Below, piece by piece: positions 8,414 through 63,988 of a DNA stretch of 64,000 nucleotides; within the stretch, counting starts at the first letter, position 1; each line of letters begins with the position of its first letter. The notes beneath the pieces are model-generated. The model worked only from the letters and a program-made list of their open reading frames with translations, was not told where the DNA came from and searched no databases. This DNA comes from a virus (Duplodnaviria; Caudoviricetes). The stretch covers positions 21,214 to 85,213 of IMG/VR virus record IMGVR_UViG_3300028833_000119, one strand, 5' to 3'. The position numbers were made by a program, and so were the translations under genes.

Positions 8414-9954
8414 TCCTTCAACGCTTCTTCAACCTGCTTATACCGACCTGACATCAGTTTATCCACCAGACACTTGTACGGATCCAGTTCGCCGGACATA
8501 ACCATGTCGGCAATGTTTGGCGAGAAACCGGATACCAGCGCAACGCCAAGTTCATTTGTAGTTACCGGAATAGTTCCTGTGCGTGAGCAGACGTTCCAGA
8601 AGATCAGGCGGGGGAGCTTATAGCCGGCGGATTCCCAGCGGTTACGAATCGTATCGAAGAGCGTCTGATCGACCTTGGAACAGTAATACAAATAACTGCA
8701 ACAAGCTGTTGCCTGGTCGAACTCCATGTCACTGACGATCAGCACATTCGCCGGGAGCTCCTCCTGTTTCAGATGGTTCCTCACGGCGGTATCAAGGATC
8801 AGATCGAACGTCTTTTCGATGTTCGTGTTCGAGCACTCGTCATGATGACGCATGATCTGAAGTTTTGCCGCCAGTGTCAGGCCATCGTGGAAATGCACAT
8901 ACTTCGGATTTGCAGAGAAGGTTATGAACGAATCCTTGTACGGACCCGTCAGTTTCTCTGAGAAGTAAATGCCAAGCGAACGCGCCACATCATGGCAGGA
9001 AACGCCTGTATTACCAACAGGTGAACCCATTGAACCGGAACCGTCAACGACAACCAGTGTGGAGCCGTTCTCAGGCACTTTGTTCGGCAGTGCTTTCCAC
9101 TGTTCCTCAAGCGTCGGATCGGCATCACACTTGTTTCGATACGCATGAACGATATCATACGGGAAAAGTACACCGGAATGGATCTTCGCTTTGCCTTCCT
9201 TGACATTTGTCAAGTACTCTTCATATCGATCGCCGTCATGGCGGAGGAAAGCGTCGCGATAATTCATGGCTGCGCGGGAAGGGACTCCTTCGTAGTCAAT
9301 CTCGCTCCACTGATTCGCAGACATCTGCTGTTCGACAACCTTGATGCGCCTGCGTAGACCTGAAAGATTCATGCGATACTGTGCCGGCGCCCATCCGAAC
9401 GCGTTTCGCAGGAATTCAGCCCTGCGGCGAGTTTCTTTGGAGGAAGTGTTGAGTGACGGTAACCACTTGGCAAGCAAAGAAACAGGCTGTTTGGTATTTG
9501 CCATCCGGATGTCCGACTGAATCTGCATACGGAGTAATTCGATCGCTTCGTCACGCACCTTGCACGGCACATGACCGAACACAACTTCGACCACATCATC
9601 CCAGCGGCCATAAAACGGAATCAGATGAAGCAGTTTGATCGCTGCGTCCTGGTTTTCATTGCAAAAACGCTCAAAAATCACGCGGAACGTACGTCTTTCA
9701 CCGCAACCTTCTCTCGCATCCCTGGCGAAGAACAGCCAAAGGATCGCAAGCGTCGGATTTTCATTGTACGCCGGCAAAAACTTGTTCCAGATCTCATCCG
9801 GAGACATATTTCGCATGGACGAAAGCGCAAAATTGCAGTCCAGCAGGGCTTTGCCGGTTGTGCGGAGTCCAACAGCGCCGTTTTCGGTTACGGAAACGTT
9901 CGGCTGAAGCCAGTAAGCTCTTTCGGCGAGCGCAGACATAAAATCACTCATCAT
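8410..9954 (-). CDS. DUF2828-family protein (TROVE/Ro60-like domain + vWA)
   Basis: 'TENGA..ARDAREGCGERRTFR..YGRWDD..SLLAKWLPS' and MIDAS motif 'VVDGSGSM'. Confidence 0.85.
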   Translation of the reverse strand: MMSDFMSALAERAYWLQPNVSVTENGAVGLRTTGKALLDCNFALSSMRNMSPDEIWNKFLPAYNENPTLAILWLFFARDAREGCGERRTFRVIFERFCNENQDAAIKLLHLIPFYGRWDDVVEVVFGHVPCKVRDEAIELLRMQIQSDIRMANTKQPVSLLAKWLPSLNTSSKETRRRAEFLRNAFGWAPAQYRMNLSGLRRRIKVVEQQMSANQWSEIDYEGVPSRAAMNYRDAFLRHDGDRYEEYLTNVKEGKAKIHSGVLFPYDIVHAYRNKCDADPTLEEQWKALPNKVPENGSTLVVVDGSGSMGSPVGNTGVSCHDVARSLGIYFSEKLTGPYKDSFITFSANPKYVHFHDGLTLAAKLQIMRHHDECSNTNIEKTFDLILDTAVRNHLKQEELPANVLIVSDMEFDQATACCSYLYYCSKVDQTLFDTIRNRWESAGYKLPRLIFWNVCSRTGTIPVTTNELGVALVSGFSPNIADMVMSGELDPYKCLVDKLMSGRYKQVEEALKE

Positions 9955-10540
9955 CTTCATCTCCTTTATCAAATTCGTCGTACTCTTCCTTGAGTTTTTT
10001 TATTTTTTTATCAATTGCCTGAAAACATACCCCAAACTGACCTGCTATTTCACGTATATTCATGCCATACAAACGCATTGATGCAATCCGTTGTGTGCTT
10101 TCATTCTGTGTAGACATAAAAAGATTGAAATCTATTTCTGTCTCTTTGTCCGGGACCCAATGTTTTGACATACCATCAATTTCAATCCCGCTCGACACGA
10201 GAACGTCATAAGAAACTGTTGCAGGAATTGAATTGGTTATCTTGGTAAAACTGGACGTTCTTAACGGGACGGAAACAGACTGGTTTTGCAATACCAGTCT
10301 GCTCATTGCGTTTGTCGCATCGTACCATGGGAACTTGTTTATCTTTTCTTCTGTGTCGCAGTTGCGGATATATTTCAAGAACGCAATGGCAACTTCCTGG
10401 ACACAGTCATCATAAGATGCCTGACGTGCACTTTTGCCTGTATACCTTGCCATAAAATTATCGACAGACCGATAAATTTTCGGCATGTTCTGCTCGATTA
10501 ATTCGGCTTCGCGTTCCCTGGACAATTGCATAAGAAACAC
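9944..10540 (-). CDS. Sigma70/ECF-like sigma factor
   Basis: Region-2-like 'YDDCVQEVAIAFLKYI' and C-terminal HTH 'YGMNIREIAGQFGVCFQAIDKKIKK'. Confidence 0.75.
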   Translation of the reverse strand: MFLMQLSREREAELIEQNMPKIYRSVDNFMARYTGKSARQASYDDCVQEVAIAFLKYIRNCDTEEKINKFPWYDATNAMSRLVLQNQSVSVPLRTSSFTKITNSIPATVSYDVLVSSGIEIDGMSKHWVPDKETEIDFNLFMSTQNESTQRIASMRLYGMNIREIAGQFGVCFQAIDKKIKKLKEEYDEFDKGDEDDE

Positions 10541-12820: not shown

Positions 12821-13735
12821 TTATCTGCCCCAGGCAAGGGAGTTGACAGCATCATGCCGCTGCTCCGCAGTGGAGTGGTCGTACCGGTTGGTGATGGCCA
12901 GGGACTTGTGGTTCGCAAGGTCCCTGGCAACCGCTCCGCCGCCGATCTTCTCGACCGCAGATACGAACGAGTGCCTGAATACGTGCAAGCCACCTTGATA
13001 TCCCTTATCCAGAATTCCGGCCTTCTTCTGCTTGTTCGTCATAGCGTACCAGAGCTGGTTTGGGCTGCATGGCATACCATGCGTGGTTATGAAAAGCGGA
13101 TCGCTGTCCTTGATGTCCTTCCGCGTCTTCAGGTACGTCTCCACATACTTGTACGCAAATTCCGCCACATCCACATCCTTGATGGCGCCGCCCTTACGGC
13201 GAACACGCACATATCCGTGCTTGTAATTCCGCAGATGCCCCACCGTCAGCTGGCAAAGCTCTGATGCGCGGAGGCCTGTGCCGATAAACATGGCGATGAT
13301 CGCCCTGTCACGCTTCTTCAGGTCGGAGTCGCGCTTTGGAATTGCCAGCAGCTTTGAGATGTCCTCATCGGAGTAGTACTTATCCTTCGGCTTCTCCTCA
13401 TCCGGGATCTGATCATAAGAGGGGAGCCGCATCGTCTTCAGCACGTTCGACACATCCGGAATGTCCGGATAGATCGTATGTGCCCAGCGAAGGAACGGAT
13501 TAATTGTTACCACATAGTTATTGATTGTGGACGGCTTCTTGTCCTTCTTGAACGCATTGAACCAGCGCTGCAGTGAAGCGCCGGTCAACCCGTCGATGGA
13601 TTCCTCGTTCATCTTAACACCGAAGTCCTCCATCTGGCGGAAGACCCGCTGAAGAACGTCGATATGGTGTGCCACAGAGGTTTCTGCGATACTGCAGGAC
13701 TCGACATAGAAATCGATCATCGGATACATACACAT
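12821..13735 (-). CDS. Tyrosine recombinase/integrase
   Basis: Catalytic residues 'GLRASE', 'HVFRH', 'ANH', 'RYDH'. Confidence 0.92.
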   Translation of the reverse strand: MCMYPMIDFYVESCSIAETSVAHHIDVLQRVFRQMEDFGVKMNEESIDGLTGASLQRWFNAFKKDKKPSTINNYVVTINPFLRWAHTIYPDIPDVSNVLKTMRLPSYDQIPDEEKPKDKYYSDEDISKLLAIPKRDSDLKKRDRAIIAMFIGTGLRASELCQLTVGHLRNYKHGYVRVRRKGGAIKDVDVAEFAYKYVETYLKTRKDIKDSDPLFITTHGMPCSPNQLWYAMTNKQKKAGILDKGYQGGLHVFRHSFVSAVEKIGGGAVARDLANHKSLAITNRYDHSTAEQRHDAVNSLAWGR

Positions 13736-31533: not shown

Positions 31534-32889
31534 ATGGATGAATACGTTGTAATTCAACAAATTATGAACCTTTACTGTTTCGATATGACGAGGTATCGGT
31601 ACATGACTCCTGATGGCGAGTACCACACCGTAAAACTTCCGTATGACGAGACGCTGATCTATGAGCACCTCGAGGGGAAAAAGACAGTGTGCGTGTATGC
31701 GCGTGAACGGAACACTATCTTCCACACGTTCGATGTAGACGAGTCGGATCCTATTAAGGTTCATCTAGTCATAGACAAGCTTGTTGGGATTGGAATACCT
31801 CGCGACAAGGTCTACGTTTCGACTTCCGGAAACAAGGGATATCACATCGACCTGTTTTTTGATGCGCCGGTGTGGAAGTCTGACGTAGAGGGAGTGTTCA
31901 ACTATGTTGTGCGTGATCCTGTGATTGCGGCTATCAGGATGGAGTGCAAACCCGGACGGAAAGGCGCGATCAAAATCCCGCTTGGAATCAATTTCAAAAC
32001 AGGGCGCCGCTGCTGGTATGTAGACCGGGAGACACTGGAACCGATCGAGCGGAATGATTATGTATTTGAAATTCAGAAGATGAGCGCGGCGGACTTTGCG
32101 CAGATTGCGTATATCTGCAATAAAGAAAAGAAAAAGGAAGATATTCTGCTTGCGAAAGCAAATCAAAGGAAGCCGCAAAAGCCCAGGAAGTTTGTTGCGC
32201 GAAACGAGCCGACGATCACCGCGCCCGGGCAGCGGCACGACAAGATGCTTCAGAAAGCGGTGTGGCTGCGAGCGGTCGGCGGGGATGCTGATGATATTTA
32301 TGAAGAGTTGATCAAATGGATTAATCGTCAGGACACATCGCTGATAGGAAGTTCGTGGAAAGAAATTGATGATGATGCGAGCCGGATTGCGCGTGACGTG
32401 GCAAGACGGTACGAGGTGAAGGTAAAGCAAAAGAATAATATTGTTCGTCGTACTGATGAGATTGGCAGAAATGATATGGAGGTTATTCTCGCGGCGCCGA
32501 CAAAGACAGCTCGTAAGGCTGCTTTTTTAATTTGTGCATATTGCAGGGCGTTTGGTGTATGCAGTATGGGATATGATCGGATGGCGCAAATTCTTGGCGT
32601 TACATACCAGACTGCGTTCAATGCAGTAAAAGCGTTGATTGAATGCGGTGCAATTGAAAAGAAGAAAGTTGGCGGTGTTGCTTATTCTGATGGCAAGCCT
32701 GTATTGGTTGCGAATGAATATGCTTGGATAACAAAACAAAGCGATGGTGGCATAAGGTTTACGATCAGTGAAGTAAGCTCTGATTTTCCGAGGGTTTATT
32801 ATCGTGCGCTGTGCGATATATTTGATCAAGATATACTTGAGAAACGATTGACGAGATCTGAACTGGAGGAACTAAAAAAATGGAAATGA
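31534..32889 (+). CDS. AEP-type primase-polymerase / replication initiator with C-terminal HTH
   Basis: 'FDVDE' (DxD), 'STSGNKGYH' (motif II), 'IKIPLG', helical PriCT-like region, HTH 'GYDRMAQILGVTYQTAFNAVKAL'. Confidence 0.75.
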   Translation: MDEYVVIQQIMNLYCFDMTRYRYMTPDGEYHTVKLPYDETLIYEHLEGKKTVCVYARERNTIFHTFDVDESDPIKVHLVIDKLVGIGIPRDKVYVSTSGNKGYHIDLFFDAPVWKSDVEGVFNYVVRDPVIAAIRMECKPGRKGAIKIPLGINFKTGRRCWYVDRETLEPIERNDYVFEIQKMSAADFAQIAYICNKEKKKEDILLAKANQRKPQKPRKFVARNEPTITAPGQRHDKMLQKAVWLRAVGGDADDIYEELIKWINRQDTSLIGSSWKEIDDDASRIARDVARRYEVKVKQKNNIVRRTDEIGRNDMEVILAAPTKTARKAAFLICAYCRAFGVCSMGYDRMAQILGVTYQTAFNAVKALIECGAIEKKKVGGVAYSDGKPVLVANEYAWITKQSDGGIRFTISEVSSDFPRVYYRALCDIFDQDILEKRLTRSELEELKKWK

Positions 32890-34289: not shown

Positions 34290-34695
34290 AGTTTACAGTG
34301 AACTTTCATACATGCCGCTGAGTGAGGAAAGAGTCGTCCAGAAACTCATTCGCGACAGGTCGGTATAGGACCAATCTTTCTGGCCCATGTTTGATCCGTC
34401 CGGTATATTGAGCACGGACGGCGTGTTTGCGCTGAACGAGGACGTACTGTGTATTTATGCGGACCTTGATTCGCTGATTGAGCGAGCGGGATTAAGTGAG
34501 CAGGAGCGCCTGACAGTGGACCTGCTGATGCAGGGATACACGCTTCCGGACATTGCTGACCATTACGGGAAGTCAAGGCAGAACTTCGAGCTTTTTCTGA
34601 AGAAGGCTTGCAAGAAGATTGTAAAGCGCAACAATGCCGACTGGGAAGAATGCACGGGTGCGCGGATCGACGACGGCGAGTGGGAGAGTGAATAA
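34279..34695 (+). CDS. Sigma70 region-4-like HTH regulator containing an in-frame TAG (34366-34368)
   Basis: Frame open from GTG 34279/ATG 34312 except for one TAG; C-terminus 'GLSEQERLTVDLLMQGYTLPDIADHYGKSRQ..KACKKI'. Confidence 0.65.
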
Positions 34696-35133: not shown

Positions 35134-35439
35134 GGGGTAGGCAAGAACAGGGAGGTCTGGGCGTGTGTAGGCGAGCGCGTAGCTGAAGCGGCAGACTGAT
35201 AAATGCCAAGAAGAAAATACAGCCCGTACGTCAGAACACATCGGGGCCAACCCGACGGGATTCGGAGGACGCAAGTGCCGAAGATAAACCTGACACAAGG
35301 CGTTTTGACATCTGACAGGGATGCGTGTGATTAAGTGGCGGTGGAGAAAGATCGGTACGATAAAGCGCCGGCGCGACTGCACACCCCCATATCTTTCAAA
35401 AAACCTGACAAGCACGAGGAGGTTAAGGCTACTGCACCA
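35134..35439 (+). ncRNA. Divergent tmRNA-like RNA
   Basis: 5' GGGGUAG pairs with 3' CUACUGC-A-CCA (G3:U70 wobble, G2:G71 mismatch); helix-2-like pairings; UA at -5/-4 of a GCC resume codon; T-arm non-canonical. Confidence 0.4.
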
Positions 35440-35466
35440 GGCAGCTTTTTCAGTCGTGCGTATCGA

Positions 35467-35526
35467 AAGACGCTAACAGCAAAAATTATACAATAACAAT
35501 TGGAATGTTACTATGCATGCGTCTTG
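35467..35526 (+). ncRNA. AAGACGC-RCAGCAA stem element, copy A
   Basis: AAGACGC/GCGTCTT closing stem, TAACAGCAA, internal TAACA-ATTGGAA-TGTTA stem-loop. Confidence 0.55.
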
Positions 35527-35550
35527 TTATTTTATATCGGAGGTGCTTAT

Positions 35551-38370
35551 ATGCTTTGCTGGAACGTTTATGTAAGTGACTTTAATTCCGGCAGGATTAA
35601 ACCTTATAACATCTTTCAGCACTACGGGTTTTATAACGAGTGCGTGAAAGCGAAGAAAAAACACAAAGACGACAAAGAAGGTTTTGGAAAAGACGTGCAT
35701 GGCTGGCTGATGTATTACTTCTGGTCGAAATGTGAATGGGAAGTCATCCTGGACCACTGGCCGTCCGGCGAGTTTTATAACATGCGCAAAGTGCTGACGC
35801 TGGAGGAAATGTACCATGACCTGAAGTATCCGGAAGACAAACTGTTCAGCGCGCCTGATAGGCGGTTCGAGATCCGCGTATTTCCGGAACACAACCGGTT
35901 CAGGGAAGAAAAGATTGACGTTTTTGCCCAAGTGGAAAACAACTGGGATATTTTTATTGATTGGCTATGGGATCACCGCAGTGAGTTGAAAGCGAGAAAA
36001 TAATATGGCGAAGAAAGAAGTAATGCTTGGTGTGCCGGATAGTCCGGAAGTTGAAAATGAAATAAGTTTGTTGGAGCATCGTGCTATTTTGTTTGGGTTC
36101 CCGGAGCATGCTGTCGAGATTGAGATTCAGGCGAAGGTTTTCGAAAACGGAGAACTGCTGAACGTAACAAAAAAAATGGATATGGATGAGATCCGCGAAG
36201 CTTTCCGGAAAGCGGATGACGGTTATGTTGATGATGATGATAGATTTGTGATTACCGATAAAGGAATTGCATATCTGGAAGAACACAATCAGCCCACTTA
36301 AAATCAATACAATTTTATAAGTAATGATAAGTAGATGAGTATTTACCCATCTCGTTTACCGGAGGTTCACTGACCATACTATTATTAATGGGGTGATCAT
36401 ACAAAATGAAGGCGAATCGATATGCGCGGAAGCGCCGGCACAAACGTGAGCTTGAGAAGAAATATGCGAAGAAGTATGCGTATGGTTCCGGACAATATGA
36501 TGTTCAATGGTTGCGTGAAAAGTTGCGGCGTGAAGCCCAGGAAGACAACTGGTGGATTCGAAGGCATCCTCCAAAGAATAATGGTTGGGAGTACTGGAGG
36601 ACATATTCCCTGTCCGGCAGGCGCGGATATGCAAAGAAATATTCAGACAAATGTATCCGGCAGAAGTACAGGCAAATGATCAAGTGCATTGATCCGGAGG
36701 ATGTGATTGCGATGAGGGGCGCTGATTATGAAAAAGAGTATGACTATTCGTGGACGATTTGGTAAATGGCGTGAGAAGCGCATGATAATCCGGAAGAACA
36801 AGGAACTGTGTGAGCGGTTCCCTTTTTTGATACCATGGCACAGGTTTACTGGCGAACGTTTCGTACAGCTGGACAGGCACGGAAAAATGAAAGCTGTTCA
36901 TGACTATGACTGGTCGTATACAGAACTTGACAGTATGCCGGATGGGTGGCGCAAAGCATTCGGAATGAAGATGTGCGAAGAAATCCGCGAAGAACTGATC
37001 AAGTGGAATGATCTTGACCGCTGGCAGATTATTGAGATGAAAGAGAAATACGGGCAGCTGCGTATTTATGACAACGGCATAAAGATTGGATGTCGTATTC
37101 ATGATATCGAGAGAAAATACGAACAGATCAGCGAGCGCACATGCATCGTGTGCGGTGCGCCTGCAACAAAGATGACGCTTGGATGGATTTCGCCGTACTG
37201 CGACAAATGCTGTCCGGAAGAGTACAGCGAGCCGATCGGCAAATATTTAAAGGGGGAAGATACAATTGTCTAATGAAATACAGGTAACTGAAAAGATGGC
37301 AAAGTTTATTGACTGGGTGACCAGCCTTGGCGAAGATGAGGTGCGTAAACGCATCCGGGATAAAATTAATGAAATCAAAAACCTGCCGCCGAACGTGCGC
37401 GACCGGGACGGTTATTACTGGGATATCCGGCTTGAGCCGAACGATGGGAATGATCAGTACAAACACGGCGGCGACTGCAATCTGTGTAAACGGCTGAAGT
37501 ATTGCGGGACAAAGTGCGGAGCAAATAAGGTTTTGAAGAAAATTACAACGCCTTATCTGTACCAGATGTATATTGACGAAAACCCGGAAGTTGCCGCAGA
37601 AGAGGCAGCTGGTCGGATTACACCGGATGATATGTTGAAGATTGTGGGTGCGGACGATGGACAGCAGCCTGTTCTTTGATGATATTACATGGTGCATGAA
37701 AAGCGATTGTCCTATGAGGACATGCAGAAGGAACTCCGTGAACATGATCGATCGCACAGGACTTCATTCGTTCGCGATATTCAAAGGAACGGCAGACTGT
37801 CCGATCAGCCAGTCCCTGGACGAGTGCATGGACGGATGCCTTTACGCAAAAGAGTGCTTCGCAAAACACGACGATCCGGATGAGGCTTTGAGGGTGCTGG
37901 TGGAAGAATACTGTGACGACTGTATGTTTTCTTCTGCGGAGGAAGATTAATGAAAGAGATTATTACTGAAAAGCAAATGAAGGATGCGTTCAGGGTTGCG
38001 TATGATTTTATGAACAAACATAATTCAATCCTGCATGAAGCGGATGAGTATACCCGTACGGTTAACGAGATTTATGGGGTTGCAAAGACATACGGTGTTA
38101 ATCCTTTGATGATGCGCCTGGTTGTTGCATGCTACGAATTTATCTGCGACAAGTCATTTGCAATTCGTTCACAGGAGGGAAAAGATGACACCTGAAGAAC
38201 TTCTTGAAGATCTTGAGACATGCACAGGGCCTTGCGGACGGATGTGTATGTCATGTCCGGAAAGCAGGTATGTTGCAGAAATCCGCGAAGTGCTTGTAAC
38301 GCTTATGGATGAAAACAAGAAATTGCGCGAGGCGCTCAGAGGATATACAGGGGAGGTTGATTTTTTATGA
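35551..38370 (+). CDS. Eight middle-region hypothetical ORFs (35551-36003, 36005-36301, 36406-36765, 36782-37273, 37266-37679, 37657-37950, 37950-38195, 38185-38370)
   Basis: Abutting ORFs; 36782-37273 carries 'EMKEKYGQLRIY..CIVCG..YCDKC'. Confidence 0.72.
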
Positions 38371-38518
38371 TCAGTGCATGGTGGCTGCTGTTGATTGTTC
38401 CCGCGTCGGCGTTGTTGGGTATTTTTTGTATCGCTTTATGTTCGGCATCGAGGACAGATGACTGACATGCTTGCATATTTGCCGATTTATTTAATTATAT
38501 AAGAGGGAAGGGATTATA

Positions 38519-39202
38519 TTGGCGACAGGACATAAAATTATCGAACCTTCCGGCAGGACTTCTGTTGCGATGATCGATAACCATGAAAGTGCCGTTGCGT
38601 ATGTGAACGGCATATAGGAGAAGTGGTCCGGTTATTGCGATAAAAATTGGTTGAACGATTCCGGTGATGTGTATACGCCGGAATTGAAGATCAAGTATTT
38701 TCTTGACGGACTTGCTTATTTGCTGCTGATCGGAAACACGGATGGCATAGAAACGAACTATAAACGTGTGATGAATGCGAAGCGTGAGATTCCGGCGTCA
38801 AGCTGTCCGAGTGAAATCGAGAACCTGTTGTATGGAACCGGATGCTCGACGGATTACGCAGAGGAAGAGGAAGCCCAGTTCCGGGATATGCTGGACAGGC
38901 TTGACAGCAAAGCGGAGCCTTATGAATGCAGGAAAACAAAACGAGACAGGAAATGCAGCCTGTTTGCGAAGAAACTGCAGAAAGGCATACCGGACGGAGA
39001 CTGGTATCTTGTTGATACGGAAGGAAGATTCAGGGTCGGCGACCAATGCTATATTATCGAGGATAACGCTGTACAGTACCAGCCGGTCCAGACGGAGTAC
39101 GGCAATTATTACGCGATGGATAAAGTCCTGTATGCTGGCGGCAAATTCTACGATATGAATTATGACGAAGTGATTGTCCTTCAAGTCGGGACGGAGACGT
39201 AA
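38519..39202 (+). CDS. Hypothetical protein containing an in-frame TAG (38615-38617)
   Basis: TTG start after GAGGGAAGG RBS; 32 sense codons, TAG, then continuous frame into track ORF 38651-39202, which has no RBS of its own. Confidence 0.65.
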
Positions 39203-39215
39203 AACCCGTCTGCAT

Positions 39216-39322
39216 AAGACGCACACAGCAAACCATATACATATTAAAAACTTCTTAATAATAGTTTTCCGGCAACGCCTCCTGACAGTGCGGACCAGTG
39301 CCGGCCTTTTTATTGCGTCTTG
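39216..39322 (+). ncRNA. AAGACGC-RCAGCAA stem element, copy D
   Basis: AAGACGC-ACACAGCAA ... GCGTCTTG with two internal hairpins (including CCGGCA/TGCCGG). Confidence 0.55.
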
Positions 39323-39328
39323 TCTTAT

Positions 39329-39402
39329 TGCCTGTTAGCTCAGTCCGGAAGAGCGTCGCACTGTTAATGCGAATGTCACAGGATCGAAGCCTGTACAGGC
39401 AG
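39329..39402 (+). tRNA. tRNA-Asn (GTT)
   Basis: TGCCTGT/ACAGGCA acceptor, GCTC/GAGC D-arm, TCGCA-CTGTTAA-TGCGA, ACAGG-ATCGAAG-CCTGT; CCA not encoded. Confidence 0.9.
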
Positions 39403-39500
39403 CGAATTGCGGTATAAGTTTTCGGACTTATATCTGGGTGGCCGGATGCGTCCGGCTTCCTGCACCAAGCTGTGCGAAACATCCGCCGAACGGCGGACAT

Positions 39501-39580
39501 GGCCGTGTATGCAAAATGGAAAAGCAGTGGCTTCTAAACCCATGGAATTATTCTGGGTTCGACTCCCAGCTCGGCCACCA
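39501..39580 (+). tRNA. tRNA with CUA anticodon (amber suppressor candidate; Leu- or Tyr-like body)
   Basis: GGCCGTG/CTCGGCC, TGC/GCA D-arm, GTGG(C)-TTCTAAA-(C)CCAT, 9-nt variable region, CTGGG-TTCGACT-CCCAG, A-CCA encoded. Confidence 0.75.
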
Positions 39581-39643
39581 AAGACGCTTGCAGCAAACTT
39601 GAAGCATCAGACTGTTAATCTGAAGAAGCTAATCGGCGTCTTG
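39581..39643 (+). ncRNA. AAGACGC-RCAGCAA stem element, copy B, with Asn anticodon arm
   Basis: AAGACGC-TTGCAGCAA..TCAGA-CTGTTAA-TCTGA..GCGTCTTG. Confidence 0.6.
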
Positions 39644-39653
39644 CTACATTTTG

Positions 39654-39715
39654 AAGACCCATACAGCAAACAACTGATGAAGCTACAGAGGATGATGAGC
39701 AGAAAGCGGGTCTTG
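39654..39715 (+). ncRNA. AAGACCC-RCAGCAA stem element, copy C
   Basis: AAGACCC-ATACAGCAA ... GGGTCTTG (compensatory change in the stem). Confidence 0.6.
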
Positions 39716-39735
39716 GATATTTCAGCCAAGAGGAA

Positions 39736-40956
39736 GTGAAGGGATTGAGCAGGTCTATTGAATCGCTCAATGTAAAGGAAAAAGCGAGCCTTGTCCAGGA
39801 GATGCTGGACAAGAAAACCGGGGTTTTGGATAAAGACTGGTGCGACATGGTCATGGATTACGATCTGGATTGTAATCCGGAAACCCTGCGGAAAGCCGGG
39901 GTCGGCGTAAAGCTTGCAAGCGACGCAGGAATGTGTTTCCCGATTGACGGCGCTGTAACCCGCGACGTTATGGATGGTTATGTTGAGCGCCAGAAACTCT
40001 ATGACCTTCAACGCGGAATCAGGAAAGACCTGCGCGAACAATCCAGAAGCGAGCTGCTTCGGGAGATGATCTGCAACGCGATTAAAGCGCTGCCGAAGAT
40101 CAATGTGTCTGTATGCCAGGAGAGAGTTGAACATGAAGCCGACAGAAGCCGCGAGCTGGTTGTCGGGATCGGTGATTTCCATTACGGCGCCAGGTTTACG
40201 GTGGAAGGCCTGTACGGCGAGGTGCTGAATACGTATGATCCGTATGTGTTTGATGAACGGATGGGAATGCTGATTCACGAGGTTAAACAGATTGCGAAAA
40301 CACACAAACCGGAAATGATTACCGTGATGATTGTTGGCGATATGCTGGACGGAATGATTCATACATCGCAGCTGACGAGGCTTGAATACGGCGTTGTCGA
40401 GAGCGCGATGCGGCTCAGTGAATATCTTGCGCAGTGGCTTGCCGAACTGAATCGCGAGACAGGCGTCCCGGTTCGTGTGTACGCTGTCCGTGGAAACCAC
40501 GGCGAGATCAGGCCGCTCGGAACCAAGGCAGGACAGTTCCCGGAGGAAAACCTGGAGCGGGTTGTTATGCATTACCTGGCCATGCGTTTTGAGGACAACG
40601 ACGTTATCCTCGTAATGGACGATGACGCGCCGATGAGCCGCGTTGTTGATGTGCTGGACTACAACTTCCTGCTGCTCCATGGACAGGGAAACGACATTGA
40701 AACAATCGCCCGTGACTGCCAGACACTCTATAATAAGAAGATAGATGTGTTTATGGTCGGGCATTTACATAAAAACCAGACGTTCACCGCAGGAATGGGA
40801 CGGAACGGCAATGTGCTGATCGAGCGGATCCCGAGCCTGTGCGGAATGGATCCCTACGCGCAAAGCAAAGGATACGGGTCTCCGCCAGGTGCGACTGTGA
40901 TCGTGATGGAAAAAGGATACGGACGCAAGTGTGTGTATCCGATTGTATTAAGCTAA
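39736..40956 (+). CDS. Calcineurin-like metallophosphoesterase
   Basis: Motifs 'GDFHYG', 'VGDMLDG', 'RGNHGE', 'HG', 'GHLH'. Confidence 0.85.
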   Translation: MKGLSRSIESLNVKEKASLVQEMLDKKTGVLDKDWCDMVMDYDLDCNPETLRKAGVGVKLASDAGMCFPIDGAVTRDVMDGYVERQKLYDLQRGIRKDLREQSRSELLREMICNAIKALPKINVSVCQERVEHEADRSRELVVGIGDFHYGARFTVEGLYGEVLNTYDPYVFDERMGMLIHEVKQIAKTHKPEMITVMIVGDMLDGMIHTSQLTRLEYGVVESAMRLSEYLAQWLAELNRETGVPVRVYAVRGNHGEIRPLGTKAGQFPEENLERVVMHYLAMRFEDNDVILVMDDDAPMSRVVDVLDYNFLLLHGQGNDIETIARDCQTLYNKKIDVFMVGHLHKNQTFTAGMGRNGNVLIERIPSLCGMDPYAQSKGYGSPPGATVIVMEKGYGRKCVYPIVLS

Positions 40957-56482: not shown

Positions 56483-59400
56483 ATGGCGGATAAATGTATT
56501 GGTAAGCTTTATCTTGATATCAGTCAGGTAAAGAAAGATATAGACGAGGTTAATGAGTTTCTATCAAAGATTGGCGCTAACATTAATCTCGAAGATAAGC
56601 TAAGTAAGAGTATCGGTAAGGCACTTAATAATCTGGTTGCAGAAGCGAAGAAAGCCGGAAGCGAAGCAGAAAAAGCTCTGAAGAATGCTGTGAACCTTGA
56701 TACCAAAGGCGGCATTGAGAGTACAATGCAAAGAGTCACGACAACCGTAAACACATATGTTCGTGAGGTAGACAAGGCCGGAAATGCTACCGGGAAACTG
56801 GTTGGCACAGTACAAACAGGGTTCGACGCAGCCGGAAACAAGATTAAAGAATTTGCAGACTCAACCGGAGCAATCACGAAACGAACAGAAGAAGTAAAGA
56901 ATTCTGTTGAAGAGCAGATTGATGCTATGTGGAAGCTCCATGATGCTGAAGAACAGGCATATAGCAAACAGGGAGAGGCTGCTGTTCAAGCAGGATTAAA
57001 GCGAGAGGAAGCCGCAAGAAAAGCAGCCCAAGCTGAACAGGAACGGTCTGCAAGAGAAGTTGCGACGATGGAGAATGATCTCGCAAGGAAAGAAGCTGCA
57101 GAGGATGCTGCTCTTGAAAGAAAGATAAGCGCGGATGCAGCTGCACAGGAGAAATTAAGACAGCAATCTATTGAAACAGAATTTGCCCGTGAGGAGGCAA
57201 GAAAAAAGGAAGCTGCCGCAGAAGAAGACCTGATTCATAAAGAAGTTGCCGCTATGGAAGAGGCTATTGAACAGGAGAAGGCAGTACTTGATAAACAGGT
57301 CCAGGCTTACGAAGAGGCTGAAGAGAAGAAACGTCAGGCAAGTATTAATGCCGAATTTGCCCGTGAAGAAGCAAGGCAACGCGCTGCGCAGGAAGAAGAG
57401 GATTTGATCCAAAGAGAAATTGCTGCCATGGAAGAATCTATCCAGAAGCAACAGGAAGCAGCGCAAAAGCAATTTGAAACTGACCAGATCAACAGGGCAA
57501 AACAGGCGTATTTTGAATTAACAGACGCAATCAAAAATTATAACACTGCTAAAAATGACAAAGATTCTGACGGCATGGCGACCGCACAGAAAAGAATCGA
57601 TGCGGCGATGCAGGAAGTTAATGCGATTCGTGAAGTTGTTAACGCAAGTGACATGGAAGCGAATGCAAAGCAGCAGGTTCTTAATTATCTTCAACAATGC
57701 GTGACAGCCGAACATCAGCATGGCGTAGAAGTAAAAAATACTGCCAAATCAACCGGCGAACTTGAATCCCAGGTTACCGGGTTGTTGACGCGGTACATTA
57801 GTCTGACAGCGGCAATCAGGGCAATAAACGGGTTAATTCAAAATACCGTTGAATATGTATCTGAATATTCTGATAAGATGAATGAAATTCAGATGATTAC
57901 CATGAAGACCGATGATGAGATTTCACAGCTTGCCAGTACGTACAGGAATATTGCCGCTGACATGAGCGTCAGTTCACTTGATATGGCTGATGCTGCGATT
58001 TACTTTACACGCCAAGGTCTGGCAGCGGAAGAAATTGAAAAACGTCTGAAAAATGTTACGATGTACGCGAAAGCAGCGAACGTTGAATTTAAAGACGCTT
58101 CTGAAATCATTACTTCAGTCGTTAACTCTATGGGCCTTGTTGCACAGCAAGCAGAAGACGGCAGGAATGCAACACAGCGTGTTGCTGACGTATTCCTGAA
58201 TATCGGCGATAACGCGGCTACAAGCGGTCAGGAAATTGGTGAAGCCATGCAGAAAGCTGCTGCATCTGCCGGTGCTTTCGGCGTATCTATGGAATGGCTT
58301 GCCGCGTATATTGCAACTGTATCTGAAACAACCCGTCAGGAAGCGAGAACAATTGGTACCGCATTTAACACCATTATTGCCCGTCTGCACCAGATTAAAC
58401 AAACCGGTTATAATCAGGAAGACGAAACAAGGGTTAACGATATCGCGAAAGCATTGTCAAAGATTGATGTTGTCCTGATGGACCAGGAAGGTAACTGGCG
58501 CGATATGGAAACGATCCTGGAAGAGGTTGCTGATAAATGGGGCGGTCTTGACGGCAAAACAAGGTCCTATATCGCGACCACGATGGCAGGCGTTAAACAG
58601 CAGAACGTGTTCCTTGCCCTGATGAATGATATGTCAAAGGGTGTTGAAAACGGGAGCCGTGCTTTTGAACTGCACGAAAAAGCTATAAACTCGGACGGTG
58701 TTGCTGCAGAAAAATACGCTGTTTATCTTGATAGCGTAACTGCGTCTCAGGAACGGCTCACGGTTGCACAAGAGAATTTCTATTCTTTGTTGGATGACGA
58801 TGTAATAAAGACTTGGAATAATACACTTGCTGACGTTGTTAATTCTATTTCAGAAGCAGCGGAACAAACTGATGGATTAACTTTGATTCTGCCTGTTGCG
58901 ATTGGACTGATTTCAGCGTTTGCGATTGCGATAACACATGCCGGTGGTGCATCCGCATTGTTTGCGAGTATATGGGAAAAACACCCGGTATTACTTGCAA
59001 TATCTGCTGCAGTTGCAGCTGTTGCTGGATTAACACTTATTGTAAGCGAAATTATCAGCGCAGCAGAAACGGCTGAAGAAAAGATGAGCCGCCTGAATAA
59101 AACAATTGAGGAATCCAGTTCAAATGTAAAGTCGTTACAATCAACAAGGGACGAATTCAATCAATTGTTTGAAAAAATACAGAGTGGCGCCGAGTTAACA
59201 TCTTCTGAATTAGCCAGGTATAATTCTCTTCTGGATGAAATAGCAGAATTATCTCCCGGCGCGAAAGCAGGAGTTGATCATTTAAGAGACAGCCTATATG
59301 ACCAGAAGACTGCCGCGCAGGAGACAAATGATGAACTTGAGCGGATGATTAAAAACCAGCAGACAATCACTGCTCATGCTCTTGCGGAAAAATATTCAAA

Positions 59401-62400
59401 TATGAATCCTTCCTCAAAGAGCAAAGCAAATGATCTTGCAGTTGCTATGTCTAACTGGGACGAAGATTGGGCAAACGGCGGGACATCTGAATCTGGCAGG
59501 TTTGCCAGTTCCCTTTACAATGCGTTTGCATCTGCGTCCGGTGTGTCAACACGTAAAATGCAAAGCATGATCGACAGTTATAATTACGGTGATTTCAGGC
59601 GGGTAAACCACAAGGTTCTCTCACAGGAAATCTATGATGAAATCAAGAATAAGCTTGAGGAGTATAAAAATCTTGATATAGATACCGCTGAATTATGGAG
59701 ATCAATTGGTAATTATATCTGGGGCAAATATGCCGATACGGCAGACATGAAGGAATCAACAGAGCTGATGATGGATGTTATCAATGGTTCTGTTGACGAA
59801 GTTCTTGCTGGCGTGGGGCAGCACCTTGATGCTGTTCAAACGCAGGCTTTCAGGAATCAGATCATGAAGGCTATTCTCGGCGACGATAACCAGTTGAGCG
59901 AGGAAGAATATGCAAGCTACGGTGACCGTATCGCAGAAATTGTTCTGAAGGCAGCTGCAAATGGTTTCGATCCGGAAAAGATTATTTCAGACGGAGAATT
60001 GCAAGCTGCACGAAAAGAACTTACAGACGGACTTATTGACAGCATCATGGATTTCTCCGGCGTTGAGGCCCTTACGGGCGGCATGTGGATGAAGCTTGAT
60101 CTTTCAACACTTGAACAAATTGATACCATGTTGAAAACAACTGGTGTTACAATTCAGGATATTGAAAAGATTATGGCAGAGTCGAGTTCAGTTGACGAGT
60201 TTACTAACAAACTGAAAGAACTGGGTAAAACACTTGAGGAAAGCGGCGGAGAAGAGGGAAAACCAAAGTCACTGAAGGAATTAACAAAGGAAGTAAATGA
60301 TTCAGTAAAAGACATAAAAGCCCTTGACGCCGCGATTAAGAGTATCCAGAAAGACCCTCAAAATATTAATTACAGCGACATCCTTGGACTTGCGGAAGCT
60401 CATCCGGAATTATTGACAGTTATCGGTGATACGGATGCATTGCTGAAAAAACTGAAAGAGGTAAAAGCAGAATCCAAAAATCAACAGCGTGATTCTTTGA
60501 GAAATATGATTCTTAGCAATGAGAAAACTATGGCTGGCAGCAAATATGCTGACAGCGGATTTGCAACGCTGAAGGATTACAGAGACTCTTTAACGGATGA
60601 AGCAGCAATTGCAGAGTTTGATGCCGAGATCGAAAAAATGATCGATGGATGGCAGAAGGCTAATGAAGACGCGAAGAAAGCAGCCAAAGAATCCAAGGAA
60701 GAAGCGAAGGATGCGAAAAAAGCCTTTAGCGATACAGTTAAAGAAGTTGAATCACTTGACAAAACGATTGAGAAGCTTCAATCGAAGAAGAAAGTTGATT
60801 TCTCCGATCTTGTTGATCTGTCAACAGCACATCCTGAAATTATGGCATTTGCAGGCGACGCGGATAAATTGATTGAAATCCTGCAACGTCTTAAAGCACA
60901 GGCTGAAACAAATGTAAAGAATAATCTAAAAGATTATATGCTTGATAGCGAGGATTATTTCAAAGAAAGCGAACATTACGATCCTCGATTTAAAAACATG
61001 CGCGAATACATTACAGACCTGCGTGATTCAAGGGATGCAAAAGAGAATTGGAAAGATGTTGCAGATGAGGTGGATAATGCTGCTCAGAATATTGTTGACG
61101 CAGCAAAAGAAACTAAAGACGCTGCCGAGTCCTGGCTGGAAGCACAGGCGAAGATCGCTGAGATCAACGAGGAAGTCAACTGGGCGAAGAGCAATAACTT
61201 TGAGGACCAGATCAATGCGCTCCAGGGTGCTATAGAAAGCGGCGGCATTGAATCCGCGATTGAATTGTTTGAGAGCTGGACTGATGAGATGCAGAAAGCT
61301 GTTGCTTCTGAATATCCTGCGCTTATCAAGATAATGGGTAATACCAAGAAAGCCATGAAGGAGCAGGGCGACCAGACAGAAGTACTTACGAAACAAACAA
61401 AAGAAATGAAGGCTACTCTCGCCAGTACAGAAAAGTTAAACAATGTAAAATATTTTACGGATACTGCGGAGGCAATCAAAAAACTTTCCAACGGGACGAT
61501 CAGCGCAACAGATGCAATCGAAGTGTATCACAAGGAAGTCAACAAGGTAACCAAGGCGTATGAAGATATTCTGGATGTCCAGAATAAGATGGAATATAAC
61601 GACAAAGAGGCTAACAAGGACAATCCACAGAAGATTGATGCTGCGGATGTTAGCAACCTTGCAAACCTGTTGAATATGACAACAGAACAGGTTCTTGCAG
61701 ATTTCCCGGCGGCTGTGGACATGTTCGACCAGTTGACAAGCAGTACAGGCGAATTGACAGATATGCTGAATCAGCTGTCTGCAGCTTCGTTTATCAAGAT
61801 TACCGGTACGTCCGAGGCTGATTTTACCAATTTGCAAAACGGATTGATTTCCATTCAGGGAATGGCGAAAGAAACTATTGAGCAGCTGGAAAAAACAGGT
61901 CTGTGGACAGTTGAAACCATAAAGCTAGATACAGAAGCATGGGTACAAAATGCAGACGGCACATGGACATCAAAGTATTTGCAAGGTTATCAGGAAATCC
62001 TGAAGCCAACTAGTAATAACCCATTAAGTGGAAGAACGGGTGGTACGGGTGTAAAAGATAACTCGACAAATAACAGGCGAAGCGGCGGCGGAGGAAGCAG
62101 CAAAGACAAGAACAAGAATAGTATGACCGAAGTGGAACGTGCGCTGGACGTGATGAGCCAGGTAAACACGATCCAGGAAGGCCAGCAGGGCTACTACCAA
62201 AGCCAGCAGAAATACTACCAGCAGACCGGACAGCTTCAGGGCGTTATTGCTTATATGCAGCGTGAAAACGATGTGCTGAAGAACCAGAACGTTACGCTCG
62301 AGGGCAACATCCAGCGTATCGAAGCATACATGGAAAAGAAACGTGCGGAACTCGCCACACTGTCCATTACAGACGAAGCGTATGAAGAGGTTGCGGACGA

Positions 62401-63988
62401 TCTGGATAAACTACAGAAAGCGCACCAGACATATACGAAGCAACTGGTTGACAACAGGACGGCGATGGATGCGCTGACCAAATCGATCAAAGAGCAGAAC
62501 GATAAAATCAGGCAAATGGAAATTGACCTGCGCAACACAATCCTGAAGGCAATTGAGGATCGTGAACGGCGGACAGAAGATATGATGAACGCCGAGATCG
62601 AGATGGAAAACAAAATCCTCGACCTGATTACGCGCCGCTATGAAAGGGAACGCGACGAAATCATCGAGACAACCAACAAGCGGATCGACTTGCTGAACGA
62701 GGAAAAGAACCTGCTTTCAGAACAGCTTCAGATGCGAAAGGAACAGGCGGACGAGGAAGACAAGCTGACAAAGCTGAAGGAACTCGAAGTCAAATACCAG
62801 CGGATTGTGGCTGACCCGACGCGGAGAAAAGAAGCACTGAGTATCCGGAAGGATATCGACGATCTCCGCAAGGAGATGGCCTGGGATGCCGCAGAAAAGG
62901 AAGTCAAAGCGCAGCAGGATGCACTGGACAAACAGATCACAAACCTTGAGGATTACATTACGTATGTCGAGGAGTATTACGAAGATCTGTTTGAACACCC
63001 GGTAAAGCTGATCGAGGAAATGAAATCCATCCTTGAAAAGAGCGACGCGGAGATCATCGAATGGCTGAAAACAAACGAAGAAGAATATGCCAGGTCCACG
63101 GAGAACACACAGGCGAAGATGGTCAGCGGATGGCAGGATACGCTGGATGCGATGCGCGGACTCATCAAGACATACTGGGATGAGGTCGAGCAGATTGTCT
63201 CGCAGGGCGATGAGTATATCATTGAATTCCTGAAGGCAAACAGCAAGGATTACCGTGAAGCCGGAAAATTGCAGGCCGAAGCGTATGTGGACCAATGGAA
63301 GGAACAGCTGGAGAACCTGAAGAAAGCGCACCAGCAGGTGGCAGCTGATATTGCCGCGTCGTACGACGTTATCCAGAAATCCGAAACCTCTGCGTCAAGC
63401 AAGAGCAGCGGCGGCGGAGGAGGCGGAGGCGGCAGCAAGAAATCCAGTCAGACAGAAGACCACGGATACAGTTTTGTATATGGCGGAAAAACATATGCAC
63501 AAAACGGTTTTTCAACCAAGGACGTTGCTGATGCTGCTATGAAAGACGCTGTGTCAAACATTGTTCGTATGAGCGCCAGCGCGGGTGGAATGTCAAGCTC
63601 GTCAATGATTGGTCAGGGCATCAAACTTATACAGAGTCAGGCAACGGTATATAAAGACGGCGGTCTTGCTGACTTTACCGGCCCTGCATGGTTAGATGGT
63701 ACAAAACAGGACCCCGAACGCATCCTGAATCCTTACCAGACAAAACTATTTGAATCGATGGTACAGGCGCTTGAACGCATGAGCACGATCAGTATCCCCG
63801 GGATGCCGGACTTTGGCGGAATGGCTGCAGGCGGCAACCCGGTATCGGTTGGCGACATTGTTGTGAACGTTGAGAACCTCGATACTGACGACGACTATGA
63901 GGAACTGGCACAGAAAGTCAGCGAGATCCTGATGGATCGGATCGGACGGACTGCTGTTGTAGGCGGAATGAGAATCAGTTCATTTTAA
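56483..63988 (+). CDS. Tail tape measure protein (2501 aa)
   Basis: Long helical coiled-coil; TP901-like core ('VFLNIGDNAATSGQEIGEAMQKAAASA..EARTIGTAFNTIIARL'). Confidence 0.92.
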   Translation: MADKCIGKLYLDISQVKKDIDEVNEFLSKIGANINLEDKLSKSIGKALNNLVAEAKKAGSEAEKALKNAVNLDTKGGIESTMQRVTTTVNTYVREVDKAGNATGKLVGTVQTGFDAAGNKIKEFADSTGAITKRTEEVKNSVEEQIDAMWKLHDAEEQAYSKQGEAAVQAGLKREEAARKAAQAEQERSAREVATMENDLARKEAAEDAALERKISADAAAQEKLRQQSIETEFAREEARKKEAAAEEDLIHKEVAAMEEAIEQEKAVLDKQVQAYEEAEEKKRQASINAEFAREEARQRAAQEEEDLIQREIAAMEESIQKQQEAAQKQFETDQINRAKQAYFELTDAIKNYNTAKNDKDSDGMATAQKRIDAAMQEVNAIREVVNASDMEANAKQQVLNYLQQCVTAEHQHGVEVKNTAKSTGELESQVTGLLTRYISLTAAIRAINGLIQNTVEYVSEYSDKMNEIQMITMKTDDEISQLASTYRNIAADMSVSSLDMADAAIYFTRQGLAAEEIEKRLKNVTMYAKAANVEFKDASEIITSVVNSMGLVAQQAEDGRNATQRVADVFLNIGDNAATSGQEIGEAMQKAAASAGAFGVSMEWLAAYIATVSETTRQEARTIGTAFNTIIARLHQIKQTGYNQEDETRVNDIAKALSKIDVVLMDQEGNWRDMETILEEVADKWGGLDGKTRSYIATTMAGVKQQNVFLALMNDMSKGVENGSRAFELHEKAINSDGVAAEKYAVYLDSVTASQERLTVAQENFYSLLDDDVIKTWNNTLADVVNSISEAAEQTDGLTLILPVAIGLISAFAIAITHAGGASALFASIWEKHPVLLAISAAVAAVAGLTLIVSEIISAAETAEEKMSRLNKTIEESSSNVKSLQSTRDEFNQLFEKIQSGAELTSSELARYNSLLDEIAELSPGAKAGVDHLRDSLYDQKTAAQETNDELERMIKNQQTITAHALAEKYSNMNPSSKSKANDLAVAMSNWDEDWANGGTSESGRFASSLYNAFASASGVSTRKMQSMIDSYNYGDFRRVNHKVLSQEIYDEIKNKLEEYKNLDIDTAELWRSIGNYIWGKYADTADMKESTELMMDVINGSVDEVLAGVGQHLDAVQTQAFRNQIMKAILGDDNQLSEEEYASYGDRIAEIVLKAAANGFDPEKIISDGELQAARKELTDGLIDSIMDFSGVEALTGGMWMKLDLSTLEQIDTMLKTTGVTIQDIEKIMAESSSVDEFTNKLKELGKTLEESGGEEGKPKSLKELTKEVNDSVKDIKALDAAIKSIQKDPQNINYSDILGLAEAHPELLTVIGDTDALLKKLKEVKAESKNQQRDSLRNMILSNEKTMAGSKYADSGFATLKDYRDSLTDEAAIAEFDAEIEKMIDGWQKANEDAKKAAKESKEEAKDAKKAFSDTVKEVESLDKTIEKLQSKKKVDFSDLVDLSTAHPEIMAFAGDADKLIEILQRLKAQAETNVKNNLKDYMLDSEDYFKESEHYDPRFKNMREYITDLRDSRDAKENWKDVADEVDNAAQNIVDAAKETKDAAESWLEAQAKIAEINEEVNWAKSNNFEDQINALQGAIESGGIESAIELFESWTDEMQKAVASEYPALIKIMGNTKKAMKEQGDQTEVLTKQTKEMKATLASTEKLNNVKYFTDTAEAIKKLSNGTISATDAIEVYHKEVNKVTKAYEDILDVQNKMEYNDKEANKDNPQKIDAADVSNLANLLNMTTEQVLADFPAAVDMFDQLTSSTGELTDMLNQLSAASFIKITGTSEADFTNLQNGLISIQGMAKETIEQLEKTGLWTVETIKLDTEAWVQNADGTWTSKYLQGYQEILKPTSNNPLSGRTGGTGVKDNSTNNRRSGGGGSSKDKNKNSMTEVERALDVMSQVNTIQEGQQGYYQSQQKYYQQTGQLQGVIAYMQRENDVLKNQNVTLEGNIQRIEAYMEKKRAELATLSITDEAYEEVADDLDKLQKAHQTYTKQLVDNRTAMDALTKSIKEQNDKIRQMEIDLRNTILKAIEDRERRTEDMMNAEIEMENKILDLITRRYERERDEIIETTNKRIDLLNEEKNLLSEQLQMRKEQADEEDKLTKLKELEVKYQRIVADPTRRKEALSIRKDIDDLRKEMAWDAAEKEVKAQQDALDKQITNLEDYITYVEEYYEDLFEHPVKLIEEMKSILEKSDAEIIEWLKTNEEEYARSTENTQAKMVSGWQDTLDAMRGLIKTYWDEVEQIVSQGDEYIIEFLKANSKDYREAGKLQAEAYVDQWKEQLENLKKAHQQVAADIAASYDVIQKSETSASSKSSGGGGGGGGSKKSSQTEDHGYSFVYGGKTYAQNGFSTKDVADAAMKDAVSNIVRMSASAGGMSSSSMIGQGIKLIQSQATVYKDGGLADFTGPAWLDGTKQDPERILNPYQTKLFESMVQALERMSTISIPGMPDFGGMAAGGNPVSVGDIVVNVENLDTDDDYEELAQKVSEILMDRIGRTAVVGGMRISSF

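Follow-up and report, generated by a model that had tools for sequence, protein, structure and literature searches.

The tRNA gene with the anticodon CUA described here is, with a probability that we put at about 0.85, a functional amber suppressor derived from a bacterial-type tRNA-Leu, which the host leucyl-tRNA synthetase (LeuRS) would charge and through which TAG would be read as leucine. This reading is drawn from sequence comparison across a family of related phages. The gene lies in the window, by which we mean the whole stretch of 64,000 nucleotides that was analysed (bases 21214-85213 of a single virus contig of 85,213 bp, estimated to be 74% complete). The features that bear on the reading are collected in Table 1.

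Table 1. Genes, codons and elements associated with the tRNA(CUA). Positions are those of the window unless given as genome positions.
Feature	Position	Strand	Remarks
Sigma-factor-like regulator, 127 aa	34312..34695	+	phrog_3512 sigma factor, E 1e-8
In-frame TAG of the sigma-like gene, context GTA TAG GAC	34366..34368	+	predicted to be read as Leu (comparative)
A1, conserved gene, 227 aa, directly upstream of the tRNAs	38519..39202	+	one in-frame TAG
In-frame TAG of A1, context ATA TAG GAG	38615..38617	+	predicted to be read as Leu (comparative)
tRNA-Asn(GUU), neighbour in the small tRNA cluster	39329..39403	+	ARAGORN; Rfam 60.9 bits; also in L001
tRNA, anticodon CUA (amber suppressor)	39501..39580	+	ARAGORN; Rfam RF00005; parse; syntenic in relatives
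Hairpin-like element, AAGACGC...GCGTCTT	39581..39642	+	starts at the base after the CCA of tRNA(CUA)
RuvC-like resolvase (L017)	genome 10107-10652, outside the window	-	TAG at genome 10553

Genes in the window run leftward up to about 30 kb and rightward beyond, with a primase-helicase, an integrase-family recombinase and other genes in the leftward arm and an exonuclease, the terminase, the portal protein and other structural genes in the rightward arm. The switch in strand and GC skew falls at about 30-31 kb. The rightward arm is headed by a gene whose product has an AEP-TOTE primase domain (31534-32889, +), PF00589 marks a gene at 12821-13735 (-) as a tyrosine recombinase or a member of the integrase family, and the structural arm includes a very long ORF of 2501 amino acids (56483-63988, +), whose TAA stands 12 bases short of the end of both the window and the contig. 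A protein of 520 amino acids with DUF2828 and DUF7788 domains (8410-9972, -) matched phrog_850, which carries the PHROG label 'RNA-binding protein'; it is of possible interest, the phage being one that manipulates tRNA. Prophage relatives of the terminase were sought in GTDB species genomes and none were found. Weak matches to the phage tRNA-Asn (E up to 0.01, best 82% identity) occurred in 16 of 400 Clostridia and 5 of 401 Bacteroidia genomes, which may be taken as a faint lean to Clostridia and not as a host call.

Stop codon usage was assessed over the 135 ORFs chosen greedily from the contig. Of these, 71 end in TGA, 63 in TAA and a single one, itself doubtful, in TAG. Among all stop triplets of the contig, 10.8% are TAG, and the probability of such a deficit at ORF ends is 3.5e-6, indicating that TAG is purged from the gene ends of this phage. 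In-frame TAG was absent from the long structural ORFs as well. The contig has no gene for a class Ia aminoacyl-tRNA synthetase or for a release factor.

ARAGORN called two tRNAs in the window, both on the plus strand. The one with the anticodon CTA scored 39.0 bits against Rfam RF00005 (gathering score 29 bits; E 1e-4 for the window). Its acceptor stem, GGCCGUG/CUCGGCC with a U6.U67 mismatch, leads into A73 and a CCA that is encoded in the gene. The D stem consists of three Watson-Crick pairs (U10-A25, G11-C24 and C12-G23) and A13.A22, and the D loop of 9 nt contains A14, A15 and G18G19. An anticodon stem of four pairs and a C31.C39 mismatch closes the 7-nt loop UUCUAAA, which has U33, a purine at 37 and CUA at 34-36. 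The variable region comprises 9 unstructured nt (GGAAUUAUU) with U48 last, and the T arm (CUGGG/UUCGACU/CCCAG) is canonical. An earlier note on this DNA had described the A73-CCA end, the 3-bp D stem, the 9-nt variable region, A15, U48 and the two mismatches in the acceptor and anticodon stems; all were present on reading and in our parse, and the CUA register that it had proposed agrees with the ARAGORN call and with the loop sequence. The tRNA is nevertheless irregular, having the mismatches U6.U67, C31.C39 and A13.A22 and no clear nucleotide 26. Folding by free energy alone did not recover the cloverleaf (z -0.83), so that the case for tRNA function rests on comparison with relatives.

ARAGORN labelled the gene 'Pyl', a label that reflects the anticodon alone, and the CUA anticodon is all that it has in common with a pyrrolysine tRNA. 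In pylT the anticodon stem is 6 bp long, the variable loop has 3 nt and the D loop is small, whereas the window tRNA forms an ordinary cloverleaf with an anticodon stem of five positions, a 9-nt D loop with GG and a 9-nt variable region. In addition, the columns in which TAG occurs align with Leu and not with Lys (log-likelihood for Lys -80, see below). The chance that TAG encodes pyrrolysine in this phage is negligible.

Relatives were sought using the exonuclease, A1 and sigma-like proteins, which gave 14 IMG/VR contigs and 39 metagenome loci (referred to by L numbers), or 45 sources after removal of duplicates. Wherever a related contig extends over the interval between A1 and the exonuclease, a tRNA(CUA) was found there, in some contigs only with relaxed ARAGORN settings because of unusual T and D loops. 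The presence of a tRNA(CUA) at the same spot in relatives confirmed that the gene in the window is real, beyond chance. Among the 24 distinct syntenic sequences that make up the family set, A73, U8 and A14 are each found in all 24, A15 in 22, U48 in 23 and the encoded CCA in 20. The stems are about 97% paired, with 3-6 types of pair at most positions and with compensatory changes. Eight of the 24 sequences (from L033, L035, L003, L068, L058, L008, L031 and L040) have C33 in place of the near-universal U33, in loops reading CC-CUA-AA or CC-CUA-AC. In several others G18G19 is missing and the T loop reads, for instance, UGCAAGU or UGGAAGU, as would result from a swap of the elbow pair.

We compared the window tRNA with the identity elements of bacterial tRNA-Leu. 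The published set consists of A73, A14 (with U8), A15-U48 and the G18G19-U55C56 elbow; the geometry of position 47n counts and the anticodon has no role, some LeuRS enzymes accept a tRNA whose variable arm is shortened or absent, and the variable arm of Aquifex tRNA-Leu can be shortened (PMC6614811, PMC2377443). A natural tRNA-Leu of Streptomyces has a variable loop of 5 nt, and E. coli LeuRS is reported to charge type II tRNA-Leu only (PMC6614811). The window tRNA has the bases of U8-A14, A15-U48, G18G19 with U55C56, and U54-A58, as well as the discriminator A73. The suggestion in the earlier note that A15:U48 and A73 are tRNA-Leu features matches the published set, and these bases are near-invariant in the family. 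Two features of bacterial tRNA-Leu are absent from the window tRNA. Its variable region consists of 9 unstructured nt as against the type II stem-loop, usually of 13-17 nt and ending in GU, and in place of the Leu-type D arm (U8 G9 G10 Y G12 G13 A14 A15 ...) it has UA-UGCA-AAAUGGAAA-AGCA.

The Leu-type D-arm motif is present in L012, L039 and L046, with near-variants in L058 and L006. Long-armed members of the family have U8 G9, a GUG-GAA D arm and a variable arm that opens with one unpaired base, U in the Leu pattern, continues with a stem of 3-5 bp and ends in an unpaired GU or AU, and on these features they look like bacterial tRNA-Leu. The D-arm motif of the long-armed members (TGGTGGAAT..AKACAC) was scanned over the GTDB species genomes and gave at least 121 matches in at least 120 bacterial stretches. 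At least 105 matches lay in tRNAs called by ARAGORN, and among the matches listed all 105 of 105 were in tRNA-Leu. In the bacterial tRNA-Leu reference set obtained from the listed matches, A73 was present in 103 of 110, G13A14A15 in 102 of 110 and a variable arm ending in GU in 94 of 110; U8-G9 is shared.

Variable regions across the family range from 5 to 17 nt. On a tree of the A1 proteins, tRNAs with long and with short variable regions are mixed within groups of close relatives; for example, L003 and L044 have near-identical A1 and quite different tRNA(CUA) genes, with variable regions of 17 nt (6426-6513 of L003) and 5 nt (1288-1364 of L044). This suggests that the tRNA(CUA) evolves fast or is exchanged between phages, and the family tRNAs appear too diverged, and seemingly exchanged, for proof that all share a common descent. 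When the window tRNA and the tRNAs of two relatives were compared by BLAST with cultured phages and E. coli genomes, no usable match resulted, the only matches being those of the tRNA-Asn and 28-nt matches of the L003 tRNA to the tRNA-Leu of Vi01-like phages (E 0.8).

Supported in-frame TAGs occur in only three genes of the phage, namely those for the sigma-like regulator, A1 and RuvC. All relatives show conservation of the A1 protein to either side of its TAG, and the N-terminal part of the sigma-like protein is conserved across the TAG of that gene. Ahead of the TAG, both genes encode a peptide that relatives keep in frame at 50-68% identity, and we therefore consider that they are read through and not restarted. 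In RuvC the TAG follows the N-terminal strand, and the Pfam match (PF02075, residues 8-164 of the read-through ORF) spans it, with the matched N-terminal part preceding the TAG. The contexts RSV*DQ and VNGI*EKW, which the earlier note had picked out, proved to be real read-through sites, at which most relatives have TAG and several have CTT or CTG (Leu). A1 belongs to no Pfam or PHROG family, and its AlphaFold model (pLDDT 68, pTM 0.32) had no Foldseek match at E 0.001 or better. No PDB relative of the RuvC ORF was found by sequence; a peptide-pattern search of IMG/VR gave no close relatives of it, and another search then gave two. The RuvC relative in L072 has a TAG of its own at a Met position.

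Two further TAGs were considered and rejected as read-through sites. That at genome 19067 precedes a GTG start that is coupled to the gene before it, and that at genome 2969 lies upstream of the Met start of a putative gene, which by eye looks like a homing endonuclease. A score based on codon usage did not separate real from spurious in-frame TAGs.

The mismatches in two stems and the modest Rfam score may indicate that the tRNA(CUA) is decayed or non-functional, in which case the TAGs would be true stops followed by restart downstream. Table-11 ORFs with TTG or ATG starts do lie downstream of two of the TAGs. However, the upstream peptides have been kept in frame across relatives at about 50% identity, a part of RuvC that Pfam recognises precedes its TAG, TAG has been purged from gene ends, and the stems covary across 24 orthologous tRNA(CUA) sequences. 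Together these make a dead tRNA highly improbable, and they favour a functional suppressor.

To determine which amino acid TAG encodes, we chose coding frames by summed protein similarity between loci, aligned the genes of each family and assessed those columns that hold TAG and have conserved flanks. A naive six-frame tally of the residues aligned with TAG had been swamped by conserved non-coding frames and was replaced by this choice of frame. The first set, in which near-identical lineages were collapsed, contained 25 TAG columns. Leu was the majority residue in 15 of them, and where at least 90% of the other lineages shared one residue, this was Leu in seven columns, Met in one and Asp in one. 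Columns aligned with Leu include WRTH[L/TAG]DRF in the terminase, KAS[L/TAG]NAD and a column in the portal protein. BLOSUM log-likelihoods for TAG were +94.8 for Leu, +64.3 for Met, +54.4 for Ile, +27.8 for Val, -40.6 for Tyr, -68.4 for Gln and -80.2 for Lys. In a larger set, 54% of the residues aligned with TAG were Leu and 6% Tyr; the control codons gave the expected residues, TTG and CTG aligning with Leu at 61% and 73%, CAG with Gln at 57% and TAT with Tyr at 73%. The exceptions are one column each of Asp, Arg/His, Gln/Thr and Glu, mostly in L015 and L066.

Direct evidence for the window phage itself comes from three TAG codons and 11 aligned sense lineages, of which eight have Leu and one each Thr, Cys and Tyr. 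The A1 column has TAG in 33 sequences, Leu in five (L003, L044, L050, L066 and L069) and Thr in four sequences of one lineage. In the sigma-like column, TAG occurs in 15 sequences, Leu (CTT) in two lineages, and Cys and Tyr once each, and both relatives that carry the RuvC gene have Leu in the corresponding column. The Leu codon in the A1 column is always CTT or CTG, two steps from TAG, and Leu at the TAG columns is thus not explained by simple mutational neighbourhood. Judged by these alignments, TAG corresponds to Leu in the phage family. The earlier note had proposed that TAG is read as Leu or Tyr and not as Gln; the alignments support the Leu and the not-Gln parts of this proposal and speak against Tyr.

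Glutamine, inserted by GlnRS charging of the tRNA(CUA) as in the usual code 15, would be the conventional expectation, in that all phage TAG recodings in the recoded-phage literature searched were assigned Gln. The U35 of tRNA(CUA) is found in tRNA-Gln too, and in E. coli Gln is often attached in error to amber suppressors. However, Gln leads in only 1 of the 25 TAG columns, its log-likelihood (-68) contrasts with that of Leu (+95), and it is absent among the sense codons at the three TAG columns of the phage. E. coli tRNA-Gln has G73 and U1-A72, unlike the family tRNAs, all 24 of which have A73. We give this assignment almost no credence.

A tRNA-Tyr origin, as in supF, with TAG read as Tyr, would account for the A73 and the 3-bp D stem, which the window tRNA shares with bacterial tRNA-Tyr. 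Tyr is also the majority residue in 2 of the 25 TAG columns, and one lineage has TAC in the sigma-like column. Against this, the log-likelihood for Tyr is -41 as compared with +95 for Leu, true Tyr codons align with Tyr at 73-76% and TAG does so at 6%, and the called tRNAs among the listed matches to the D-arm motif of the long-armed relatives were tRNA-Leu only. A Tyr assignment is therefore very unlikely.

Another reading, which we regard as unlikely, is that TAG is Met or Ile, or is ambiguous, the irregular tRNA being charged by more than one synthetase. Met (+64) and Ile (+54) are the next best fits, one strongly conserved Met column holds TAG in one lineage, and some TAG columns align with unrelated residues. 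Suppressor tRNAs of Ile type have been predicted in gut phages (PMC10879173). Single-residue columns at the 90% level, however, number seven for Leu as against one for Met and one for Asp, and Leu lies 30 log units above Met. Both MetRS and IleRS are known to depend on the anticodon, which argues against their charging a tRNA(CUA). Leu and Ile are not separable by mass spectrometry.

A leucine-inserting suppressor would work in the following manner. LeuRS would recognise the tRNA through A73 and the tertiary core, bases that the window tRNA keeps, and would leave the anticodon unread. Since these identity bases are kept and the contig has no class Ia synthetase, we infer that the LeuRS of the host, as the most likely synthetase, charges the tRNA(CUA) with leucine, which the ribosome would then insert at UAG. 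TAG has been purged from the gene ends of the phage and serves as a sense codon at three sites only.

When sequences were clustered at 90% identity, TAG was kept in 26 of 30 clusters of A1 and in 11 of 13 clusters of the sigma-like protein. In conserved Leu columns elsewhere, 124 in number, the leading codon had a median share of 0.57. TAG accounts for 2.6% of the codons in Leu columns, and most of these instances come from the A1 and sigma-like columns. Such retention of TAG at the two columns points to selection on the codon itself, and its maintenance there across most of the family suggests that the codon acts as a gate, which would tie production of A1 and the sigma-like protein to expression of the suppressor tRNA. 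The use of TAG otherwise varies widely across the family. Terminase, portal and capsid genes hold many TAGs in L003, the L012 group and L015 and none in the window phage.

Taken as a whole, a wider proposal, towards which we incline only slightly, is that this phage family, known from metagenome and IMG/VR contigs only, reads TAG as Leu by means of suppressors derived from tRNA-Leu, whose variable arms would have become shorter several times, passing from type II to type I, or have been exchanged as cassettes. The two ancient TAGs would be selected gates and the window phage would operate a three-codon switch in place of a code change across the genome. This would constitute the first stop-to-Leu code in phages and a natural suppressor system based on LeuRS.

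The recoded phages described so far provide the closest comparison. TAG-to-Gln recoding has been validated by proteomics in crAss-like phages (PMC9523058), and TAG of phAss-1 is also assigned Gln. A survey of recoded phages reported only TAG-to-Gln and TGA-to-Trp, and special susceptibility of GlnRS and TrpRS has been argued (10.1101/2021.08.26.457843), while the isotypes predicted for phage suppressor tRNAs are Gln, Trp, Ile and Tyr (PMC10879173). In the literature searched, the coverage of which was incomplete, no phage lineage was described as reading TAG as Leu. In common with the code-15 gut phages (crAss-like, Lak, Garnet and others), the window phage has a tRNA(CUA) of its own, avoids TAG as a stop and would rely on a host synthetase, and in both cases the recoded codons may time gene expression (10.1101/2021.08.26.457843; PMC9523058; PMC10879173). 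The differences lie in the amino acid, which here would be Leu and not Gln, and in the tRNA-Leu-like body (A73 and A15-U48, with a type II arm in relatives). Moreover, code-15 phages recode many late genes, whereas the window phage has three TAG codons, none of them in structural genes, and neither a theta ribozyme nor any other Rfam family was detected beside the window tRNA.

A tRNA-Leu with a CUA anticodon is also found in E. coli supP/Su6, in which tRNA-Leu CAA has changed to CUA. These classical Leu-inserting amber suppressors are laboratory mutants of a cellular type II tRNA-Leu, and they work because LeuRS ignores the anticodon. In contrast, the gene described here occurs naturally in phages and is conserved among them; its variable region is shortened, and it is coupled to in-frame TAGs that are themselves conserved. 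TAG is read as Leu, through a CUA tRNA derived from tRNA-Leu, in chlorophycean mitochondria (NCBI tables 16 and 22) and in some ciliates, the phyllopharyngeans (PMC11687900). Those codes are organellar or nuclear codes of eukaryotes and are used genome-wide, whereas here a bacterial virus would impose the reassignment on a host that presumably uses the standard code. Streptomyces coelicolor, finally, has a type I tRNA-Leu, a bacterial Leu acceptor without a long variable arm, and its LeuRS accepts 5-nt loops (PMC6614811). That tRNA is a cellular sense tRNA (CAA) served by an adapted LeuRS of its own; in the phage family, variable regions anywhere from 5 to 17 nt long occur intermixed in closely related members.

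A phage lineage in which TAG is Leu would imply that a third synthetase can be co-opted, and annotation pipelines that assume table 15 would mistranslate the genomes of this family. A natural series of putatively Leu-accepting tRNAs with variable regions from 5 to 17 nt could be useful for studying LeuRS recognition and for building suppressor systems. The use of TAG in the window phage is near-minimal, and two of its three TAGs have been kept while the proteins diverged by about 50%, which gives a case, amenable to testing, of a stop codon that serves as a regulatory gate and not as part of a general change of code.

Four hairpin-like elements were seen near these genes (35467-35525, 39216-39321, 39581-39642 and 39654-39714), two of which bracket the tRNA pair. 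Their closing sequences are AAGACGC/GCGTCTT, except at 39654-39714, where they are AAGACCC/GGGTCTT. No Rfam match was obtained for the flanking elements, including to the theta ribozyme, at E up to 5 in 35300-39900. The theta (HDV-like) ribozyme has G1 and a nested pseudoknot (PMC10879173); the element that follows the CCA starts with A and closes end to end, and the theta-ribozyme reading of this element was set aside provisionally. The hairpin-like elements could be processing signals or cassette borders. The sequence AAGACGC-(T/A)(T/G/C)(G/A)CAGC(A/G)A also occurs 3' of the tRNA in L001, L002, L004 and L005. A different element, the abiF RNA motif (RF03085), gave no match at the corresponding place in the window. 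It was matched between A1 and the suppressor tRNA in L032 (3591-3627), L037 (2792-2828) and L002 (2466-2502), with scores of 39.9 and 37.7 bits (threshold 37) and, in L002, 27.7 bits.
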